Assembly: GCA_002685895.1 (NCBI GenBank)
Contig: NYYK01000002.1
Span: forward strand, 1-39,294
DNA length: 39,294 nucleotides
Direction: 5' to 3'
Origin: Methanobacteriota archaeon
GTDB taxonomy: Archaea > Thermoplasmatota > Poseidoniia > Poseidoniales > Thalassarchaeaceae
Shown here: piece by piece, positions 7,860 to 17,882 of the stretch
Layout of the letters: each line of letters begins with the position of its first letter
Numbering within the stretch: position 1 is the stretch's first letter
Notes under the pieces: model-generated
What the model was told of the DNA's origin: nothing
Databases searched by the model: none
The model's input: the letters and a program-made list of their open reading frames with translations, nothing else
Translations under genes and position numbers: made by a program

Positions 7860-8658
7860 ACTAGAAAAATTTTTGGCCTCAGCAAAAGCAGTATCCCTAT
7901 CGGATACAGAGCGTTGTGCAATGCGTGATGAGATATTTGCGGGAACCGTTGCAAAGTCGGTCACTGGCATTGAGCTAAGTAAGTGCGAAAAAAGGAGTTT
8001 TAAAAAAGAATTGAAAAGATTTATTAAATTGAATCCAATTGTTTCTTTTGGTAATTCGTTTGGAGGTCTTATGCATCTTAAGTTTGCTGCAACTGCTGTA
8101 ATTGCCGCGATTATTATTACTTCGACCGGCGGAGGAGTTGCATATGCGGCGGAGGATACTCTGCCCGGCGATCTGCTTTATCCGGTCAAGGTAAATGTTA
8201 CAGAGCCCTTGCGCGAGCACATGCATTTTAATAAAGATACTCGTGCACGATGGGCGGAAAAAAGACTCAAGCGCAGACTCTCGGAAGCGGAAGCACTTCT
8301 AAACAGGGGAGAAGTTTCTGATGAAAGAATGGAATGGATACAAAAACGCATTGCCATGCATCAAGTTCACTTAGAAAAAAGAATGCAGAGTTTGCCGGCA
8401 GGAATTCCCGGAGAGATCAGAAACCATTTGGAAGAACGTATGCAGGAGCATATTGATTTTCTAACTGCGATCGAAAAAGGTGAAATTCCAATGCCGAAAC
8501 TGGAAAGAGTACGCGGACATGCAAAAAAGCAAAGGATGCATATGCAGATGATCAGACAGAAGCCTCAAATGCAGCATCCAAAACTAAAGGAGAGGATGAG
8601 GGGAAAGGGGATGAAGCAGGGTGGGCTGTTTAAAGAAATGATTGAGGAGAGACATTAA
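7852..8658 (+). CDS. anti-sigma-like membrane protein with DUF5667-like extracytoplasmic domain
   Basis: Its ATG overlaps the sigma stop (ATGGATGA). It has a single TM (FAATAVIAAIIITSTGGGVAYA), then LPGDLLYPVKV and a helical, basic C-terminal part. Confidence 0.6.
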   Translation: MDELEKFLASAKAVSLSDTERCAMRDEIFAGTVAKSVTGIELSKCEKRSFKKELKRFIKLNPIVSFGNSFGGLMHLKFAATAVIAAIIITSTGGGVAYAAEDTLPGDLLYPVKVNVTEPLREHMHFNKDTRARWAEKRLKRRLSEAEALLNRGEVSDERMEWIQKRIAMHQVHLEKRMQSLPAGIPGEIRNHLEERMQEHIDFLTAIEKGEIPMPKLERVRGHAKKQRMHMQMIRQKPQMQHPKLKERMRGKGMKQGGLFKEMIEERH

Positions 8659-8665
8659 TAAATAA

Positions 8666-8693
8666 AACTTAGAACTTAGAACTTAGAGCTTAG
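8666..8693. repeat. AACTTAG heptamer x4
   Basis: AACTTAG AACTTAG AACTTAG AGCTTAG. The same word occurs at 19758-19799. Confidence 0.85.
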
Positions 8694-8720
8694 GGGCAGT
8701 TTTTGATATATCATTAGAGT

Positions 8721-8810
8721 GGAGGGATGGCTGAGTGGTCGAAAGCGCACGACTCGAAATCGTGTTAACCCTCACGGGTTACGAGGGTTCGAATCCCTCT
8801 CCCTCCGCCA
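8721..8810 (+). tRNA. tRNA-Ser (anticodon CGA), class II with long variable arm, CCA encoded
   Basis: Acceptor GGAGGGA / TCCCTCC. Anticodon stem CACGA / TCGTG with loop CU-CGA-AA (anticodon at 8755-8757). Variable arm AACCC-TCAC-GGGTT. T arm GAGGG-TTCGAAT-CCCTC. It ends in GCCA. Confidence 0.93.
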
Positions 8811-9121
8811 TGCATTACACTAATGGCACCCTAAGAATAGCTTCACTATAGGCAGCAAACTTCGTGCCTTTTACCCTTAAAATCCTATTTAGCTCTTGTT
8901 ATCCTTACAAGGGTACCAATCCTGCTTAGTTAGGTATATAGAACACTAAGGGCACTTTGAAAAGTTTTGTACCTGCTCTCATACGTGAAGATATTCTTAG
9001 GTTGCCAAACATTATCTGTCGAGTTTTCAGATATATATCTGGGGTAAACATTTGTATTTTTTTGCTTTAATTCTTCAAATCTGACTAGATAATGCTAGTT
9101 ATCTGATAAATTTACAAGATA

Positions 9122-12100
9122 TTATTCTTCAGTTTTCTCAATTTTGATTACCTCTTCTGGTGACAATTGAATCGGTAAGAATCCTTGCAAGGCAGATGAT
9201 AATTCTCCAGTTTCTAATGCTTTATGAACAGCAGGCTTTACAGATGTTTCAAAGGCTGCACGAAAGGCTTCGGGCACCTTTGCACTAACCTCATTCATTA
9301 TTGCAGCTTGCATCTTTGGATTCATACCACCAAGCAATGCTGAAACTATAACACGCATTAAATCATCTCGGCCTATAAACTGTGTGTACTCACCATCTGT
9401 TAATAATCCTTTTTGCACTTCTGTTACAAATGGGTCTAACTGTTTACCTTCTGCTTGTAATCTATCTCTCATTAGCCGCTCTTGTTCTACAAGGTCATTG
9501 AAGAATTGCTTTACTGTTTTTTCACCATTTAATGTACTTAGGAGTAATGATGCAAATTGCTGATAACCTTCTTCAGACCACTCATCCATTGCCATAGACT
9601 TAAAATCGAAGTGTCCGCTACATAATGAATCCCTTTTTACCTTAAGATTTCCACCATGACGATCAGAGTCAAATTTTCCTCGTAATTTGTTATTAATTTC
9701 TAAAGTTAGATTGATCATTGCATATTCCCTTTTTTCATCGCTTTCATCCTCTAGCTCAATGAAGTGATCACCTTCCATTTCGGTCATTAAGAAGAAGTTA
9801 TCACCTGCTGCAATTACATCAGGAGCATCAAATGTATACTGCCTTTCATCCATTGTAACAGTAGACTTTCGATAAATATCTGCAGCTGTACCGTATTGTA
9901 ATTTTGCAATACTACAGTCAGTCTCTATATCAAGACGACTACTTGCGTGTTGTACTAGTTCACGAGTGGTTTGCAGGGTAGTTTCACCCATTGCTGTTCC
10001 CAAATTATCAGCCATTCTACTCATAGTATCAAAACCAGCTCTTCCTCTTTCAAGAGAGTTTGGTCTAACAATTGATAGCATGTAGCTACCTCCATTACTA
10101 AGCTGAACTCTCGTAACTACATTAATTGAACCAGACCCAACCACATCGCCAATATGAGTTATAGTAGTTGGTTTACCAAAGTGCTGACTACACTGTCTTT
10201 CTAAATCCTCTTTTATTTCCTCTATCCACTCGGTTACTTCCCATCGTTCTGGTTCATCAGCATTATACTTTAAACGCTTTAGGTCTGTTCTTATGTCTTC
10301 AGGGACAAGTGGGTGACTTTGAGCTGCTTGACCAAATTTAGTTTCGGCAGGACCCATATTTTCAAGGAATAGTGCCAATGATTCGCCAAGTCTCATGGTG
10401 GTAACATCTTTCTTCTCAGAAGCAGACATCATAGCCGCTAAGCATAGATGCTTCTGATAATGAGGCAATGCGTCTACGTATGCTCTTATAAAATATCGTG
10501 ACTCTTGTTCATATAATCCACCGCCTGGGAATAACTTAGATATTGCATAGTCAAAAGTTTCTGCATCTACTGCACCCAATGAATCCTCTGGCGATATGAG
10601 CAATTCTCTTGAAAGAATAGCCCTAATCTCAATAGGTGCTGACCAGAAGTTTTCGTAAAAGTAACGAGTAGATTGCATGGCAAGCTGATACCTAAATGCA
10701 GAAAGTGCAGTATCAACTTGCTGTTCATCGCTTTCCGACTTTAGCGCGAAAGCACCTCTAATAGGATCATTTGGGTCTACAAACTCTAAGGCATCTATAG
10801 TCGAATCAATAAAATGTTTAGCTGAATTTAAAGAATAAGGAGTAGTCAAAAAATCTAAAGTAGATTGTCTATGCTCTGGCGATTTTCTAATGGCATCAAT
10901 ACATCCATCAGTTAAAATTCCATAGTATGCTGGCTTATCTATCATTTCTTTTGTTACTTCATAAACTTTATCCCTCATCACGCTACTCACTCTGTGCTGT
11001 GCTTCTACATCTTTTGCTAATTGACCAAGGATATGTTTCTGATCAACACGGTTAACATTGGCCTGTATTCTTTCTGAGATTGCTACTGCTTCTTGCTCGT
11101 ATTTACTACTGCCATCATCTATGCCATTAGCAGCCAGTACATTAGTAGACCAAAGCTCAATTAGTTCTGTTCTTAGTCCAGGATTTTGCACTCTACGACC
11201 ACCTAAAATTGTCTCACATAAACGTATCTGCTCATCTTGTGGCATACCACCATTACCATTTTTATGCTTAATTCGAGCTAATATTTTAGTTAAGACTTTA
11301 TCAACCATTTCTGGGAATATTAAATCAGCTTCACTCAATAGTTTCCACTGACGAACAGTGCCAGTTAGATTATTGGTACGACTTATGCTTCCAAGAAATG
11401 CGGTAGCAGATTTTGTTAATGCCTCTCGAAGATTTTCTTGGAATACAGAACCAGAAATATAATTTGCACCCATTACTTCTACAAGCTGGGCTGCCTCTTT
11501 CAATGATGGAGTTCTTTCAATCATTAATACAACAGCTTCTGCCATTAATACAGAAGTTCTTAAGCCCACTTCCTCTTCGCTCTCTTTTGATTCTGCTAAA
11601 ATAGACAAATACTTCTTCCAGGTACGTGGCTGCAATTCATAACTTTTATTCACATCGGTGAGAACCGAGTCCAGTTTTTTTATGTAAAGAGCAGCCAGCT
11701 CAGAATCGAATATAGGAAAACGTCCATCAAAATGACTTCTTTCCTCTTGACCCTTTATATATGTAATACTATCACCAGTGAGCAATTCCTCAAACAGCTC
11801 ATATTTTTCTTCTGGGCTAAAAACGCCAGTGTCTTCTTGGAGGATGAAAGTTATATAAGGGTTTCTTGATACTGCGAATTGATCTGTATCCACTGCATCT
11901 TCGTGATAACTTTCTAGCCTTTCTTCTGTCATACTAACAAATGCCATTTCACCAGGCATAGAGTTGGCTATCAGCTTTTTACCCTCCTCAGAATCAAACA
12001 ATTGTCGAACAGTATTCTGATAACGCTCTAAATCTTCATCCTTTAATTTCCTTAACCAATCCATAAAAGTTCGTATCCTTCTTTCCTCTGTAGTTAAAGG

Positions 12101-14464
12101 ACCTGAATTCAATTCAGTAAAAAGAGCAATATTATGATCACAATGCTCCATGCATATTGGAGGCCTATGTTCAAATGGATGCCAGATTTCAGTTAACCCT
12201 TTTAATTTTTGCAATGAGTTTGGATTGTCCGAATCTAAGAAATATGCAACTGCTCTAGTTGTTAAATGTAACTCCATTGCTCTACTTTCTTCTGATAAAT
12301 CTAAGGCACCTCTACCTAAAGATGTGCCAATTACTTCTCCTTCTTCATTATATCGAAGTTGCTCAAGTGTATCACCTTCACCAGATGGACCATTCGAGAT
12401 AGAGGGAATAATATTTATCGCTGCCTCTGAATTAAATGCTTCTTCTGACATATCAAACAAGGCAGCCATAGATTCTTTTTGCGCTGTCATTTGTTGCCCA
12501 GCACGGTCAAGAATGTAGTCGTATACCACATCGCCATGGTTACATAGTGCCTCAAAAACAAATGGATCACGTTTTAACCCTGCAAAAACTGCAGCTTTAG
12601 CAACTTGTGGATGTTGAGCACTTAACCTCCGAAGAGCATGCCATGGAGGTAGCTCTGGTATGTATTCATTTTCTTCGTCATCTCCATCTGAATCATCAGT
12701 TGAACTTTCCCAACTAAAACGGTCTTCATCATCGTCGAAATCATCACTTTCATCACCATAAATACCTTGTCCATAATCTGTATCGTAAAAGCTTTTCACT
12801 TCTTCTTCTTCTTCTTCTTCTTGGTCTATCTCTTCTCTACGCAAATCCTTACTTTCAACAATTGCATCTACATTAGGGAAGGAAAACTGATTCCATTTTA
12901 TACCTCTTAAGAAGTTAACTCCTTTTAGAGTTCCATGCAGATTTTCACTTTCAACCACCTGAACCAGTTTGTCTGCTGCTTGTAAAACAGCTTCTTTGTC
13001 TATTTCCTCTTCATTAATTCCATCAACTGTTTCAACAAATTTAGCAATCGCGGTGCCAACTTTTCTTAGTCTCCCTAGTGGTTTTGAAGAACGTGTAAGC
13101 GATCTAAGTTCTCCATATAGATAGTCCAAGTGACTAAAGCGTCGCTTTGCATCTTCATGCTCATCATCATCGGAGATTGTAAGCAATGTATCCGCCAACC
13201 TATGAATTGCACCCATGTCTTTACTAGTTTCTACTGACTCTCTTAATGATTTTATTTCGTCTCCTATATCCGTAATGCGAGTGCTGTATCTACGATCTAA
13301 TGCGGATAATATTCTACCTAATGTATCCAATTTTTCTGATACTGTAGCAGCTTCATAATTTTCAACTTCAGAAAGACGATTTGCTAGATATGACTGGTGT
13401 TGTGCATTATTTACTACAGTCATTATTCTATCGCTGTTGTTGTAATCGGGTAACTCATTTTCTTCTGGTGCAAGCTCACCATTCTCTTTGCGAAGGTATG
13501 CAAGTGTATCACTGACAACAGAACGGATATTATCATGCGTAGGATGAACATCCATGTACTTAGACCAGCTGTCATATGCTTTCAGTTGAGAATTCATAAC
13601 ATTATATATGCCTGAAGTACCATCTTCATCCATCACGCGTTCGGGGTTTAATCCAAGCTCTCTACCATGTTCATACATGATGGCTAATGGCAATGCGTAT
13701 GCAAAACCTTCTTCAATTTTTGAATTAGGAATATTGCCATATACCTTACGCATTTTCATGTGAGTCATTTCGTGGCAAAGAATTGCTGCCAAATCATGTG
13801 GAGATGTTACAAATGGTCTAAAAACCTTACCTTCTTTTTCTTTGCTCTTGTATTCTCTGAATAATCCTTCTGTAAGCACAATGATAGGTGGCTTACTGTG
13901 TCTCATAAACCATGCATTTGGCTCTTTTTGTTTAGAGAGCATAAATCTAACAGGTTCTTTCTCAAAGTCATGGTGCTTAAATTCATAATGTGGCAAATGT
14001 GCCTTGCTAGGGTCTTCTTTGTACAAGGTAGCTACAAAAGTTTGTATCATATCTTGAAATTCCTTACCTTCGGCTGAGCTTGGCTCAACCAATCGCCAAG
14101 ATTCTGCAATTGGCAGTGGAATCTCTCCTTTTTCTAAAGCTTCAATGATGGCATCTTTTTCTTCAGCGTCATCATCAGGCTCGTCTCCGTTACCCTCTGT
14201 GTCATCAGCTATTTCATCTTCATCCAATTCATCTATTTCTACCATGCTAGTATCTGCTGTAGCTGCCATTCTTAACCGATAGCCACTAGCAAGCCTACCT
14301 GTGGAGATAGTTGGCTGTTCAGGAATGGTGTTTTTAGGGTCTAAGCGTTCATCTAGTAAATCTCTAATTCGTGTACGACCTTCATCAACATCTTTGAGGT
14401 TGTTTTTAGGGGGAATCTTGGAAGTTCCAGCCAAATCTTTGTTTTCATCTAATGGTTGCATCAT
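9122..14464 (-). CDS. giant multidomain protein (1780 aa): N-terminal HExxH gluzincin-like module, acidic linkers, C-terminal UbiB/ABC1-like kinase module
   Basis: The ORF is uninterrupted. The protease-like motif is AAILCHEMTHMKMRKVYGNIPNSKIEEGFAYALP, i.e. HExxH with a downstream EEGxA as in MA-clan gluzincins. The C-terminus has MGPAETKFGQAAQSHPLVPEDI (a KxGQ-type motif), VVGSGSINVV, SIVRPN, KFDSDRHGGNLKV and HFDFKSM, collinear with ABC1/UbiB kinase motifs. There are two Asp/Glu-rich tracts. Confidence 0.8.
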   Translation of the reverse strand: MMQPLDENKDLAGTSKIPPKNNLKDVDEGRTRIRDLLDERLDPKNTIPEQPTISTGRLASGYRLRMAATADTSMVEIDELDEDEIADDTEGNGDEPDDDAEEKDAIIEALEKGEIPLPIAESWRLVEPSSAEGKEFQDMIQTFVATLYKEDPSKAHLPHYEFKHHDFEKEPVRFMLSKQKEPNAWFMRHSKPPIIVLTEGLFREYKSKEKEGKVFRPFVTSPHDLAAILCHEMTHMKMRKVYGNIPNSKIEEGFAYALPLAIMYEHGRELGLNPERVMDEDGTSGIYNVMNSQLKAYDSWSKYMDVHPTHDNIRSVVSDTLAYLRKENGELAPEENELPDYNNSDRIMTVVNNAQHQSYLANRLSEVENYEAATVSEKLDTLGRILSALDRRYSTRITDIGDEIKSLRESVETSKDMGAIHRLADTLLTISDDDEHEDAKRRFSHLDYLYGELRSLTRSSKPLGRLRKVGTAIAKFVETVDGINEEEIDKEAVLQAADKLVQVVESENLHGTLKGVNFLRGIKWNQFSFPNVDAIVESKDLRREEIDQEEEEEEEVKSFYDTDYGQGIYGDESDDFDDDEDRFSWESSTDDSDGDDEENEYIPELPPWHALRRLSAQHPQVAKAAVFAGLKRDPFVFEALCNHGDVVYDYILDRAGQQMTAQKESMAALFDMSEEAFNSEAAINIIPSISNGPSGEGDTLEQLRYNEEGEVIGTSLGRGALDLSEESRAMELHLTTRAVAYFLDSDNPNSLQKLKGLTEIWHPFEHRPPICMEHCDHNIALFTELNSGPLTTEERRIRTFMDWLRKLKDEDLERYQNTVRQLFDSEEGKKLIANSMPGEMAFVSMTEERLESYHEDAVDTDQFAVSRNPYITFILQEDTGVFSPEEKYELFEELLTGDSITYIKGQEERSHFDGRFPIFDSELAALYIKKLDSVLTDVNKSYELQPRTWKKYLSILAESKESEEEVGLRTSVLMAEAVVLMIERTPSLKEAAQLVEVMGANYISGSVFQENLREALTKSATAFLGSISRTNNLTGTVRQWKLLSEADLIFPEMVDKVLTKILARIKHKNGNGGMPQDEQIRLCETILGGRRVQNPGLRTELIELWSTNVLAANGIDDGSSKYEQEAVAISERIQANVNRVDQKHILGQLAKDVEAQHRVSSVMRDKVYEVTKEMIDKPAYYGILTDGCIDAIRKSPEHRQSTLDFLTTPYSLNSAKHFIDSTIDALEFVDPNDPIRGAFALKSESDEQQVDTALSAFRYQLAMQSTRYFYENFWSAPIEIRAILSRELLISPEDSLGAVDAETFDYAISKLFPGGGLYEQESRYFIRAYVDALPHYQKHLCLAAMMSASEKKDVTTMRLGESLALFLENMGPAETKFGQAAQSHPLVPEDIRTDLKRLKYNADEPERWEVTEWIEEIKEDLERQCSQHFGKPTTITHIGDVVGSGSINVVTRVQLSNGGSYMLSIVRPNSLERGRAGFDTMSRMADNLGTAMGETTLQTTRELVQHASSRLDIETDCSIAKLQYGTAADIYRKSTVTMDERQYTFDAPDVIAAGDNFFLMTEMEGDHFIELEDESDEKREYAMINLTLEINNKLRGKFDSDRHGGNLKVKRDSLCSGHFDFKSMAMDEWSEEGYQQFASLLLSTLNGEKTVKQFFNDLVEQERLMRDRLQAEGKQLDPFVTEVQKGLLTDGEYTQFIGRDDLMRVIVSALLGGMNPKMQAAIMNEVSAKVPEAFRAAFETSVKPAVHKALETGELSSALQGFLPIQLSPEEVIKIEKTEE

Positions 14465-14679
14465 TGTATTTTATCGCATTTATTGGATGATATCTATCCT
14501 TTATATGCAATTCAAGCCACTAAGCAACATAACAAAGTTCCTTTTTCTCTTCCTCAAACTCCAACATCTCCAACCTTCTATTCAATTCCGTCAGCCCAGA
14601 AAGTAGAGTAAGGATGTCTCCGTAGGGTTCCTTTTTCAACTGATAAGCTCCACCTTAATCGAGTTAAAAAGTGCTATTC

Positions 14680-15903
14680 CTACAGCATTATCCGCCCCTC
14701 CTTCAGCAACAACCTCTCCTTAAAATTCCTCAGCACATTGCTTTTCTCTAAACTCGATCCCTCACGAAAAATCCCAATCAAGTATTCTTCAATGCTGATA
14801 GGATCGTTCTCTGGTCGGAAGCGATTAATCTTCGCAAGATCCTCTTTAATTCTGCGGTTTAACCGTAGGTGTTTCTCTTTAATCTTGCCAATAATGGCGG
14901 CTGCCTCTTCAAACAGTGCTTCCTCTCGTATGTACTTACATTTACACACTCTCGTACCACCATACTTATTGCACTTGTAATACACATAGGTTTTACCGTG
15001 CCGATTCGTATGTTCAGTGCCACTAACACCAGACCCACATTCCGCACACTTCAGTACTTGATTGAAGTAAAAATTCTTACGACCCCATTTACCCTTAGCC
15101 GTGCGTTTAAGGCTACCTTGTACCTTGGTGAATAATTCCTTGCTAATAATAGGCTTATGATTCCCTTGGTATCGAATACCTCCGTACACAAATTCTCCGT
15201 AATAAAAGGGCTCTTGAAGTATGTTAAAGATACGGCTAAACCCCACCGTACCACCACTAATATTTCTAAATCCTTCCTGTTGTAGTTTTTCTTTTGCCTC
15301 TCTGCCTGTCATACCTTTCTCGGCTATGTTGGTAAAAAGTTTCTTAATGTACGGTGCTCGTTCTTCATCTACCACTATAGAACTAGGATCACCAAAGCGG
15401 TCGGCTCGCACCAGCTTATAGCCAATAGGAGGTCGACCTGGTCGTACTCCCATCTCACACTTGGTACGCAGGCCACGTTTTACATTCTTACTTCGATTAT
15501 CGTTCTCTAGCTTCGCTTGACTACAAAGAATCATCAGTAAAAACTTTTCGTCTGGGGTGTTGGTAAAGGTTTGTCCGCTCGTTTGAATTTGCACCAGTAC
15601 CTGTTGATCCATTAAGTCGACTAGCTTTCCTAGGTCACCAGCATTTCTACTTAAGCGATCTGGTGCCCACGTTAAGATTGCGTTGAATCTTCGTTCTTGG
15701 AGTCCTATTAGTAGGCTTTGATATCCTTTTCTTCCGCCAGAATCTTTAGCAGATTTACTTTCTTGAATCGTTTCTACAACTTTAAGACCCTGTTTATCTG
15801 CAATCTTCTGCATGGCTGCAATCTGTGAATCAATGGAAAGAGCTTGTCGCTCATCTGATTCAGATGATTTACGAGCGTAGAGGCAGTGGGTAGTCTTTTC
15901 CAT
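14680..15903 (-). CDS. large serine recombinase (resolvase/invertase catalytic domain + recombinase domain + zinc ribbon)
   Basis: ORF 14680..15963. The likely start is Met21 at 15903 (or Met18 at 15912), so that the catalytic LYARKSSESDERQ lies near the N-terminus. Other motifs: DRLSRN, RPPIGYK, and a Cys-rich CAECGSGV...YYKCNKYGGTRVCKCKY. Confidence 0.88.
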   Translation of the reverse strand: MEKTTHCLYARKSSESDERQALSIDSQIAAMQKIADKQGLKVVETIQESKSAKDSGGRKGYQSLLIGLQERRFNAILTWAPDRLSRNAGDLGKLVDLMDQQVLVQIQTSGQTFTNTPDEKFLLMILCSQAKLENDNRSKNVKRGLRTKCEMGVRPGRPPIGYKLVRADRFGDPSSIVVDEERAPYIKKLFTNIAEKGMTGREAKEKLQQEGFRNISGGTVGFSRIFNILQEPFYYGEFVYGGIRYQGNHKPIISKELFTKVQGSLKRTAKGKWGRKNFYFNQVLKCAECGSGVSGTEHTNRHGKTYVYYKCNKYGGTRVCKCKYIREEALFEEAAAIIGKIKEKHLRLNRRIKEDLAKINRFRPENDPISIEEYLIGIFREGSSLEKSNVLRNFKERLLLKEGRIML

Positions 15904-16031
15904 GTACCTCATGGATGACGCAACCGCGTCCCAAAGGCTAGGCGATTTTACGCTTAAATACATCTTCTAAAGAACTAGAATTTGTTATTCTATAAATATG
16001 TCAAGCCCTTGCAAACGGAACAGAATTTCCC

Positions 16032-16097
16032 CCTTTTTATAGGTGTTCCATTTGTTCCATTTCTCCTTTTTTTATAGTGTCTCATTTGTCTCAATTT
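16032..16097. repeat. tandem ~33-bp direct repeat upstream of the recombinase gene
   Basis: Copy A: CCTTTTTATAGGTGTTCCATTTGTTCCATTT (16032-16062). Copy B: CCTTTTTTTATAGTGTCTCATTTGTCTCAATTT (16065-16097). Each copy contains an internal GTYYCATTT doublet. Confidence 0.7.
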
Positions 16098-16403
16098 AAA
16101 GACAAGAATACTATTCAAAGGGTAGGAGACCTGTATGCTCCGCCATGGCCACTCACTTCGTTCGGGTTCATAGCAAGCCACCAGAGCTGATATAGCCTTA
16201 TAAGAGCCCAATTTGCGACTTTCCGCTACCTTGAAAGGAAAGATTTATAGTTCTTGTTGGGCTAGATTGACTAATATAGTTCAACTGGAGATTTTGGCTT
16301 GTATTAGCCAATTCGCGATAGAATATGCAATTTTCCCACATAATGCGCTCGATCTGTCAATTGAAAATTCACTCTAAAACACCCAATTGAATCAAGAATT
16401 TGC

Positions 16404-16433
16404 TTGCAGAGCTCCTCGGGACATGCGTAAAAT
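16404..16433 (+). promoter_or_regulatory. candidate sigma-70 promoter of the histone-fold gene
   Basis: TTGCAG, 18 nt, TAAAAT, ending about 35 nt upstream of the ATG at 16468. This is a pattern match only. Confidence 0.3.
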
Positions 16434-16467
16434 CTCCATGTTCTTTAATTACTTACCCACTACTCCT

Positions 16468-16638
16468 ATGAGTTACGTAGTAGCTTCCAAGATCAAAGAT
16501 CTTGTAAAAGCAAAAGGTATGATGTCATCTGGTGACCTCTCAGACGCTGCAAGCGCACTTCTAGAGGACGCAGTTTCCAAAGCTGTCGCACGCGCAAAAG
16601 CAAACGGCAGAAAGACTGTTCGCCCAGAAGACCTTTAG
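16468..16638 (+). CDS. bacterial histone-fold protein (HBb/Bd0055-like, DUF1931-type singlet)
   Basis: ORF 16387..16638 begins at a TTG; the ATG at 16468 gives 56 aa: MSYVVASKIKDLVKAKGMMSSGDLSDAASALLEDAVSKAVARAKANGRKTVRPEDL. It aligns by eye with my recollection of the Bdellovibrio histone (VVTSKVKKLIKEKGQM...AKADGRKTV..RDI). The C-terminal GRKTVxxED motif is typical of histone folds. Confidence 0.75.
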   Translation: MSYVVASKIKDLVKAKGMMSSGDLSDAASALLEDAVSKAVARAKANGRKTVRPEDL

Positions 16639-16660
16639 TCTTAATTCGTTAAGTAATCAA

Positions 16661-16687
16661 AAAGGACACCGCGTGGTGTCTTTTTTG
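16661..16687 (+). terminator. Rho-independent terminator of the histone-fold gene
   Basis: AAAGGACACC-GCGT-GGTGTC followed by TTTTTT. Confidence 0.7.
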
Positions 16688-16694
16688 ATTGTAA

Positions 16695-16804: not shown

Positions 16805-17882
16805 TTAACCGCGCTTCAATTCCGAATCTATGAATTGTTGTAGATCCCCATCTAACACATCCTCCGTATCACTTGTCTCAACTTCAGTCCTCAAGTCCTT
16901 AACCATCTGATATGGATGTAAGACGTAACTTCTAATTTGCTGTCCGAAGTCTGCACTTTTGGTTGCCCCCTTTAATTCCTTTTTCTTTTCGGTGTCTTCT
17001 TCACGTTGTTTTTCCAAAAGCTTAGCTCGCAGAATATTCATAGCTTGTATCCTGTTTTGTTGTTGGCTTCTTTCATTCTGACATGAAACAACTATGCCGC
17101 TAGGTGCGTGAGTAATTCTTACGGCTGAGTCAGTAACATTAACATGTTGTCCTCCTGCTCCGCTCGATCTGAATGTATCGACTCGTAAATCTTTTTCATC
17201 AATTTCAACTTCAGTCGACTCAGCAATTTCCGGAATAACTTCCACTAGAGCAAAACTAGTTTGCCTCAGATTTTTTGCATTAAAAGGGGAGAGGCGAACT
17301 AGGCGATGTGTTCCGCGTTCACATTTCAGATATCCATAAGAAGGAGATCCTGTTACATGAACTGTTACTGATTTAATTCCTGCTTCCTGCCCATTAGTTT
17401 TTTCCAAAGTATCTGTCTTCCATCCCTGTCTTTCGCAGTACCTCAGATACATTCTAAGAAGCATCTCCGCCCAATCTTGCGCCTCGGTTCCTCCCGCACC
17501 TCCGCTGATTGAAAGATAACAGTTATTCATATCAAACTCTCCACTCAGATAAAGTTGCGTCTCAATTTCCTCCCACCTACTCAGCAATTTTGCTGTCTCT
17601 TCCTCCATACTGGGGCGATCGGATTCCTCAGCTTGTCCAATCAATTCAATTAAATCCCTTGTCTCCTCAGCCAAATCCCGCACAGGCTCCCATTGGCTTT
17701 TAAGTGCCTTTAGCTCTGTAAACAAGGCATTGGCAGCCTTTTGATCATCCCAAATATCAGGGGCTTGTGATTTCTTTTCAAGCTCGGCTATACACTCAGG
17801 AATCTTCCTGGCATCAAAGAGAGTCCTTCCCCGTGTTTACGGCTGTTTGAAGTTCCTTTAATTTAGTTAGCAAGTCCTCCAT
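16805..17882 (-). CDS. prfB: peptide chain release factor 2, requires programmed +1 frameshift
   Basis: Frame 0 runs 17882..17817 (MEDLLTKLKELQTAVNTGKDSL) into an in-frame TGA at 17816-17814. A +1 shift at CTT TGA T continues DARKIPECIAELEKK... into ORF 16805..17725. SPF (RLSPFNAKN) and GGQ (SGAGGQHVN) motifs are present. Confidence 0.92.
17814..17834 (-). promoter_or_regulatory. RF2 autoregulatory +1 frameshift site
   Basis: Minus-strand ACG GGG AAG GAC TCT CTT TGA. The CUU UGA slippery/stop context has a purine-rich GGGGAAGGA upstream. Confidence 0.85.

Follow-up and report, generated by a model that had tools for sequence, protein, structure and literature searches.

Profile searches and a structural model identify the short ORF at 16468-16638 as the gene of a real bacterial histone; it lies in the 39,294-nt stretch of DNA analysed here (henceforth the window). 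Its product is probably an alpha3-truncated histone of the FtF type, encoded by a monocistronic unit with a conserved sigma70-type promoter, an SD-less leader, and a bidirectional terminator.

It was only in 2023-2025 that bacterial histones, until then a curiosity, became chromatin proteins of known structure, with the focus on Bdellovibrio and Leptospira. An HLp-like histone that is near-universal in a CPR order with genomes of ~1-1.7 Mb, and which occurs there alongside HU, contrasts with the situation in Leptospira, where HU is lacking, and would provide a second evolutionary context for bacterial histone function and for its exchange with DPANN archaea. The features of the locus are as follows:

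16203-16403, forward strand: native upstream intergenic DNA, starting at the right edge of the adjacent island, from where island-free relatives are collinear again
16404-16409, forward strand: -35-like box TTGCAG; TTGCNN at the equivalent position in all 52 singlet orthologue loci
16428-16433, forward strand: -10 box TAAAAT, 18 nt past the -35 box; TANNNT kept in the same 52 loci
16434-16467, forward strand: short SD-less pyrimidine-rich leader; the in-frame ATGs at 16423 and 16438 are upstream of or at the inferred transcription start
16468-16638, forward strand: histone gene, 56 aa, alpha3-truncated histone fold, probably FtF/HLp-like; stop codon TAG at 16636-16638
16656-16689, both strands: predicted bidirectional intrinsic terminator (A-run, GC-rich hairpin, T-run) common to the histone gene and prfB
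16805-17882, reverse strand: prfB (RF2), the convergent neighbour; NCBIfam prfB 435.7 bits over profile positions 48-352

The histone gene and its transcription unit

On re-translation, positions 16468-16638 of the forward strand give MSYVVASKIKDLVKAKGMMSSGDLSDAASALLEDAVSKAVARAKANGRKTVRPEDL followed by TAG, an exact match to the translation in the initial annotation, which had read the product as a singlet histone-fold protein of the HBb/Bd0055 kind; the C-terminal GRKTV-x-x-ED to which it had pointed is present as GRKTVRPED. By direct count, the 56 residues include 7 K, 3 R, 5 D, and 2 E, with a net charge of +3. In phmmer searches against the PDB, the protein is matched over its full length by HLp of Leptospira perolatii (9qt0, E=2.3e-8), HBb/Bd0055 (8fvx and 8cmp, E ~3e-7), and the archaeal HTkC (9f2c, E=2.8e-4). 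A family profile built from 44 homologues likewise recovers HLp (65.3 bits, gapless), HBb (56.6), HTkC (53.8), and HMfA (22.5). The AlphaFold2 model of the single chain, computed on the alignment of homologues, has a pLDDT of 93.4, and DSSP assigns to it a helix at residues 6-15, a 22-residue alpha2 (24-45), and a 3-residue alpha3 (52-54), the chain ending at residue 56. When this model was compared with PDB structures using Foldseek, as the initial annotation had suggested, HLp came first (TM 0.97, rmsd 0.6 Å, all 56 residues), next HBb and HTkC (TM ~0.90), and all further matches were to histones and histone-fold factors of eukaryotes, archaea, and viruses. The top 50 matches are all histones or histone-fold proteins, while the TM to HMfA/HMfB reaches only ~0.67-0.69. 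The claim of a singlet histone fold thus stands on both the full-length PDB matches and the structural match to HLp.

The features by which Schwab et al. (2024) define alpha3-truncated histones, namely the histone fold, an alpha3 of only 3-4 residues, and an alpha2 shorter than that of nucleosomal histones, are all found in the model. So is the RxTxxxxD motif or RD clamp (R48-K-T50-V-R-P-E-D55), whose R48, T50, and D55 are invariant across the 44 homologues together with R42, N46, G47, K49, V51, and R52. The features of the nucleosomal HMf/HTk type were not found in the protein, given the truncated alpha3, the 22.5 bits of HMfA, and a TM of ~0.67.

In the profile searches that had also been suggested, scores were low. 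The single sequence falls below the gathering cut-offs of Pfam CBFD_NFYB_HMF (PF00808, 16.6 bits vs 21.4) and DUF1931 (PF09123, 15.1 bits vs 21.8), and below that of NCBIfam archaea_histone (18.2 bits vs 50), whereas the histone fold is upheld by the PDB, family-profile, and structural matches. The Pfam and NCBIfam models cover only the C-terminal half of the protein, which explains why many database entries for the family are labelled 'hypothetical'. The sub-threshold scores reflect this limited reach of the models and are not evidence against a histone fold. In practical terms, Pfam thresholds miss this gene, and the HMMER test alone would have looked negative.

As the initial annotation had remarked, the ORF list holds the histone frame solely as an 83-aa TTG-started ORF (16387-16638). 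Sequence conservation identifies the ATG at 16468 as the true start: M1 is invariant among the homologues, and the core opens with an invariant MSYVV. A longer product of 66, 71, or 83 aa (from ATG 16438, ATG 16423, or TTG 16387) with a functional N-terminal tail would be compatible with a frame that is open back to 16387 and with the 66-95 aa products that some gene callers give for homologues. We nevertheless regard it as extremely improbable, since the extensions of the longer calls have neither length nor sequence in common, gene calls for the majority of homologues give precisely 56 aa, and both boxes of the conserved promoter sit within the would-be extension, which leaves ATG 16423 and TTG 16387 upstream of the inferred transcription start. 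More generally, the Peribacteria histone gene is routinely mis-called with false N-terminal extensions or left 'hypothetical'. The initial annotation had named two outcomes that would speak against it, a lack of significant profile or structural similarity to histones and a TTG-initiated product; both came out the other way, with significant similarity found and the 56-aa form upheld.

The TTGCAG-18-TAAAAT promoter proposed for the gene is present in the sequence 34 nt before the ATG. To obtain a footprint, the 90 nt 5' of the ATG were aligned for the window and 51 singlet orthologue loci (n=52), all of which carry TTGCNN, a spacer of 16-19 nt, and TANNNT ending 30-35 nt before the ATG, against a shuffle expectation of 0.77 of 52. 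The -10 box is TAGAAT in 38 loci, TACAAT in 6, and TAAAAT in 4; spacers of 18 nt predominate (39 loci), followed by those of 16 nt (12 loci). A generic promoter scan of the window did not report this promoter, because its -35 box agrees with TTGACA in just three of the six positions. The position of the -10 box would place the transcription start near 16440. Pyrimidines make up 76% of the 25 nt that precede the ATG in the window, and on average 85% over the 52 loci. An SD-like motif is missing from 34 of the 35 genes in the window, so its absence characterises the lineage at large, not the histone gene. We hence rejected the pyrimidine-rich SD-less leader as a histone-specific translation signal, its composition also lying within ~1.4 standard deviations of the window mean. 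The full promoter motif has only two copies in the window, the second being TTGCNN-N16-TAGAAT at 15987-16014 on the reverse strand, 23 nt upstream of the serine recombinase gene of the neighbouring island.

Downstream, the clean intrinsic terminator described for the gene proved to be a 15-bp hairpin (16656-16689) followed by T6, with a stability of -19.6 kcal/mol on the forward strand (z = -7.7; 0 of 200 shuffles as stable) and -17.2 kcal/mol on the reverse strand (z = -6.9); it is also matched by a generic scan. Folding on both strands points to a bidirectional terminator common to the convergent prfB. Hairpin and T-run are kept, with stems of differing sequence, in 11 of the 12 orthologue loci inspected, and together with the promoter conserved in 52 of 52 loci they support the earlier description of the gene as a stand-alone unit.

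The prfB gene has a programmed +1 frameshift at CTT TGA (17819-17814), 22 codons after its ATG at 17882; the frameshift site is preceded by the SD-like GGGGAAGG, though nearly all window genes lack such a motif before their start. Of 80 Peribacteria loci (L032-L111), 64 have RF2 no more than 6 kb to either side of the histone, where it is usually convergent and directly downstream, mostly with a common bidirectional terminator. It represents a conserved linkage outside the histone unit.

On its other side the gene adjoins what had been called an integration hotspot, and the 7.6-kb insertion there is real: L032, the closest relative, which comes from a marine ETNP Peribacteraceae MAG, is collinear with the window except for positions ~8605-16203, which it lacks; from 16203 on, the window aligns with L032 and L034 at ~94% identity. 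The island absent from L032 carries a tRNA-Ser (8721-8810), a giant gene, and a serine recombinase; in L033 and L034, a tRNA-Ser lies ~300 nt upstream of the histone in the orientation opposite to that of the window tRNA-Ser. The histone gene itself is just outside the island, in native DNA. An interpretation of it as cargo of the serine-recombinase island was rejected, as island-free relatives keep both the histone and the upstream region from 16203.

Host lineage, distribution, and fused forms

The contig that contains the window (C2:1-39294) is a marine Peribacteraceae (CPR) contig mis-binned in an archaeal MAG (G000). The archaea-specific ribosomal protein S3Ae is found in all 11 genomes of the bin's genus, and in G000 itself on contig C9, whereas no RF-1 domain was detected in any of 10 genomes of the same genus, RF2 being likewise absent from the ten. 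In this setting, only three of 86 contigs stand out more strongly than C2 in tetranucleotide composition; C2 has 42.5% GC vs 45% for the bin, and carries the bacterial prfB and an ArfB-like gene, observations which together argue for an archaeal MAG with a mis-binned bacterial contig. C2 is 87-94% nucleotide-identical to JASMHZ010000010.1; the L032 histone is 100% identical to that of the window, with which the L032 locus is collinear at 87-94% nucleotide identity. Two tRNAs are duplicated in G000, Ser-cga (C2, C79) and Val-cac (C92, C94); together with further low-GC contigs (C86, C94, C67, C81, C101, C61, C20, and C51), this suggests that more of its contigs are foreign.

Such a chimeric bin would mislead any genome-level inference on the histone. 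The check for HU/IHF that the initial annotation had proposed is a case in point: none was found in the bin itself (0 of 1) or in the 61 genomes of its GTDB family, a result that is misleading because the bin is archaeal, while the true relatives of the contig carry HU. We accordingly set aside two readings, namely that the histone replaces HU, as the search of its own bin would have it, and that it is patchy and laterally acquired, as its presence in 4 of the 61 genomes of the bin's GTDB family would have it; the genus of the bin is archaeal, and the contig is of Peribacteraceae. The PF00808 matches in the archaeal relatives were likewise discarded, being weak and located inside frames of ~260-310 and 745-860 aa that are not small histones. 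A separate FtF-like doublet of 116-117 aa (MVYNSKMKEAIKAGGCNTAGDA...) occurs at L002-L007 (G009, G033, G044), in one archaeal genus of the bin's family.

In a scan of GTDB species representatives, 182 genomes encode a relative of the histone, and the best 80 of these are nearly all Ca. Peribacteria, Peribacteraceae, or Peregrinibacteria MAGs, along with three Ca. Iainarchaeum. The order that contains the genome of L032 has the histone in 114 of 120 sampled genomes (95%), and the wider class in 21 of 161, at least 16 of which are also in the order sample. The histone is thus a near-universal, order-restricted core gene of the uncultured Peribacteria lineage, and is usually single-copy across the order. 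For comparison, Hocher et al. (2023) put the share of bacterial genomes with a histone fold at 1.86%, and that of Bdellovibrionota with a Bd0055 homologue at 67%; if the assignment holds, Peribacteria, at 95% vs this 67%, would have the highest histone prevalence among the bacteria known to us. HU was found in 37 of 38 histone-bearing Peribacteria genomes (92-107 bits) and was not found in the three Iainarchaeum genomes. The histone therefore coexists with HU in Peribacteria and does not replace it, and given the presence of HU it need not be the main chromatin protein. Compared with the window, the coding sequence differs at 6 nt and 0 aa in L032, 18 nt and 1 aa in L033, and 30 nt and 5 aa in L035, a pattern that indicates strong purifying selection.

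Beyond the singlets, 20 Peribacteria loci (L081, L085, L086, L088-L091, L093, L094, L096-L101, L103, L104, L106, L107, and L109) encode a fused doublet of exactly 119 aa (e.g., L098:5812-6171). Its N-half has R42 replaced by A, G47 by D, and a conserved W, and is joined by a 7-aa linker (LAFxPGK) to a canonical C-half. The AlphaFold2 model (pLDDT 93.1, pTM 0.84), in which beta-bridges connect L1 and L2 as is usual in a handshake pair, is that of an intramolecular pseudodimer. The best Foldseek matches of the doublet are single-chain pairs, namely Methanopyrus HMk (1f1e, TM 0.71), H2A-H2B chimeras, and Melbournevirus doublets; taken singly, the two halves each fit HLp (target-normalised TM 0.94). 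In the tree, both fall among the Peribacteria singlets with 98/84 support, which places the origin of the fusion within this lineage. In the two surveys searched, we found no account of alpha3/FtF doublets.

Sub-type and proposed role

Alpha3-truncated histones were divided into two main groups by Schwab et al. (2024), and the 'bacterial dimers' such as HBb are without the conserved R48 and N52 of the FtF logo (PMC11390915). In HLp, the dimer-dimer interface is formed by R49, N53, and R55, DNA is contacted by A13, S14, K15, K17, K21, T27, G29, T56, and T57, and the tetramer wraps ~60 bp of DNA (PMC12701072). In the aligned sequences, subtracting 7 from the HLp number gives the number in the Peribacteria histone. 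The interface residues thus correspond to R42, N46, and R48, which are invariant in the 44 homologues, and seven of the nine DNA-contact residues are identical (A6, S7, K8, K10, K14, G22, and T50), the other two columns having S20 for T27 and K49 for T56. With the dimer core, the interface residues, and the DNA-contact residues conserved, every testable mark of FtF histones is found, and the residue loss that marks bacterial dimers is not seen. We accordingly consider the assignment to the HLp-like FtF histones likely on sequence and modelled structure, and abandon the earlier HBb/Bd0055-like label, since nothing matches the protein as well as HLp does, whether in sequence, profile, or structure.

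The competing assignment is to the bacterial dimers, in which case the protein would stay dimeric and bend DNA locally, like HU/IHF, without forming a DNA-wrapping tetramer. It draws on significant full-length matches to HBb (by phmmer, at 56.6 bits in the family profile, and at TM 0.90), on an identity to HBb in the Foldseek alignments slightly above that to HLp (44-45% vs 41%), and on a maximum-likelihood tree that favours neither affinity, its 56 columns being too few to separate HLp from HBb. We judge it unlikely, because the R and N whose absence marks bacterial dimers are invariant here and are S and D in the R42 and N46 columns of HBb, because the alignment with HLp is gapless whereas that with HBb needs a 1-residue insertion in loop L1, and because the structural fit to HLp is better (TM 0.97 vs 0.90). 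A different objection accepts the histone fold but gives the protein a specialised role as a low-abundance regulator or complex partner, comparable to the histone-fold transcription factors. The presence of HU in 37 of 38 histone-bearing genomes would leave room for this, and Schwab et al. caution that not all histone-fold proteins organise genomes. Such a role appears distinctly improbable in view of the conserved DNA-contact residues and basic alpha1 face, the strictly conserved promoter near consensus, the order-wide and usually single-copy occurrence of the gene under strong purifying selection, and the precedent of its closest characterised homologues, which occur in the nucleoid as abundant proteins (PMC10627809, PMC12701072).

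Under the FtF assignment, and by analogy with HLp (PMC12701072), two histone chains would pair into a handshake dimer, and two such dimers would meet face to face to form a tetrameric ring whose rim is basic. This rim, made up of the alpha1 lysines and the L1/L2 bridges, would bind the DNA backbone without sequence specificity, such that the tetramer would wrap roughly 60 bp of DNA. The protein may therefore, on the HLp precedent, act as a nucleoid-associated architectural protein beside HU, compacting and shaping the nucleoid. More broadly, we tentatively propose that the Peribacteria order (CPR/Patescibacteria) may build its nucleoid with a core, vertically inherited FtF histone and HU, that the histone may share ancestry with that of DPANN (Iainarchaeota), and that in a subclade it was perhaps fused into a 119-aa asymmetric alpha3 pseudodimer; we put the odds of this whole scenario at somewhat below even. 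If true, these bacteria would offer a natural system for studying how a very small genome is divided between a histone and HU.

Relation to known histones

The initial annotation had called bacterial histones rare and poorly studied. This is only partly right, as orthologues are listed, though not discussed, in Hocher et al. (2023) and HLp has had DNA-bound crystal structures since 2025. Among the bacterial histone-fold proteins in Supplementary Table 1 of Hocher et al. (2023) are the 56-aa ALM10226.1 of Ca. Peribacter riflensis and entries from two UBA genomes of Peribacter and two CG genomes of Peregrinibacteria, and the database labels of some homologues are 'histone H3/H4' (JGI) and 'DUF1931 family' (NCBI). 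Hence, although the gene is that of a well-conserved histone from an understudied phylum, the family is already catalogued, and its closest member is structurally characterised. In the main texts searched, there was nothing relevant on histones of Peregrinibacteria, Patescibacteria, Peribacter, or the CPR, and none appear in the text supplements of Schwab et al.; the lists of bacterial phyla with FtF histones (Spirochaetota, Planctomycetota, Bdellovibrionota, and Myxococcota) likewise omit Peregrinibacteria, Patescibacteria, and the CPR. We found no report of the sub-type, of how nearly universal the histone is in the order, of its occurrence alongside HU, or of the conserved promoter, and we take these points to be new.

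Among the characterised proteins, HLp of Leptospira perolatii (FtF; PDB 9QT0/9QT1/9QT2; PMC12701072) is of the same length class and aligns without gaps over residues 3-56. It has in common with the Peribacteria histone the truncated alpha3, shortened alpha2, RD clamp, R/N/R interface, and single-gene unit. The two differ in that they are only 41% identical, in three interface residues (S52, T61, and F63 of HLp are A45, E54, and L56 in the Peribacteria histone), and in loop 2, which is RKTV in the Peribacteria histone vs RTTV in HLp. Their hosts and surroundings also differ: the Peribacteria host keeps HU, whereas Leptospira is without HU and Dps (PMC12701072), and the Peribacteria histone adjoins prfB and a tRNA-Ser, whereas Leptospira hlp adjoins smc and map. 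Further, the tetramer and DNA wrapping of HLp are established, while its Peribacteria counterpart is known from sequence and a single-chain model.

HBb/Bd0055 of Bdellovibrio bacteriovorus (PDB 8FVX, 8CMP, 9EZZ, 9F0E) is similarly an alpha3-truncated singlet with RKTxxxD, at 44-45% identity and TM 0.90, and co-occurs with HU/IHF in its host. It differs in having S/D for R/N, an extra L1 residue, and a C-terminal extension, and in being dimeric and bending DNA. HTkC of Thermococcus (archaeal FtF, PDB 9F2C), a crystallographic tetramer, differs in its longer L1 loop and in the E that it carries in the N46 column. Outside Peribacteria, the nearest relatives among the matches listed are the 58-aa histones of Iainarchaeota/Diapherotrites (53-62% identity), which have the NGRKTVRPED tail and the R and N residues but come from archaeal hosts and have an N-terminus 2 residues longer (MxxLLVV). 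Finally, Ca. Peribacter riflensis ALM10226.1 and the other Peregrinibacteria entries are direct orthologues of 56 aa (MSYVVASK...NGRKTVR.CDL), which Supplementary Table 1 of Hocher et al. (2023) lists as histone-fold hits, with no sub-type, discussion, or lineage prevalence.
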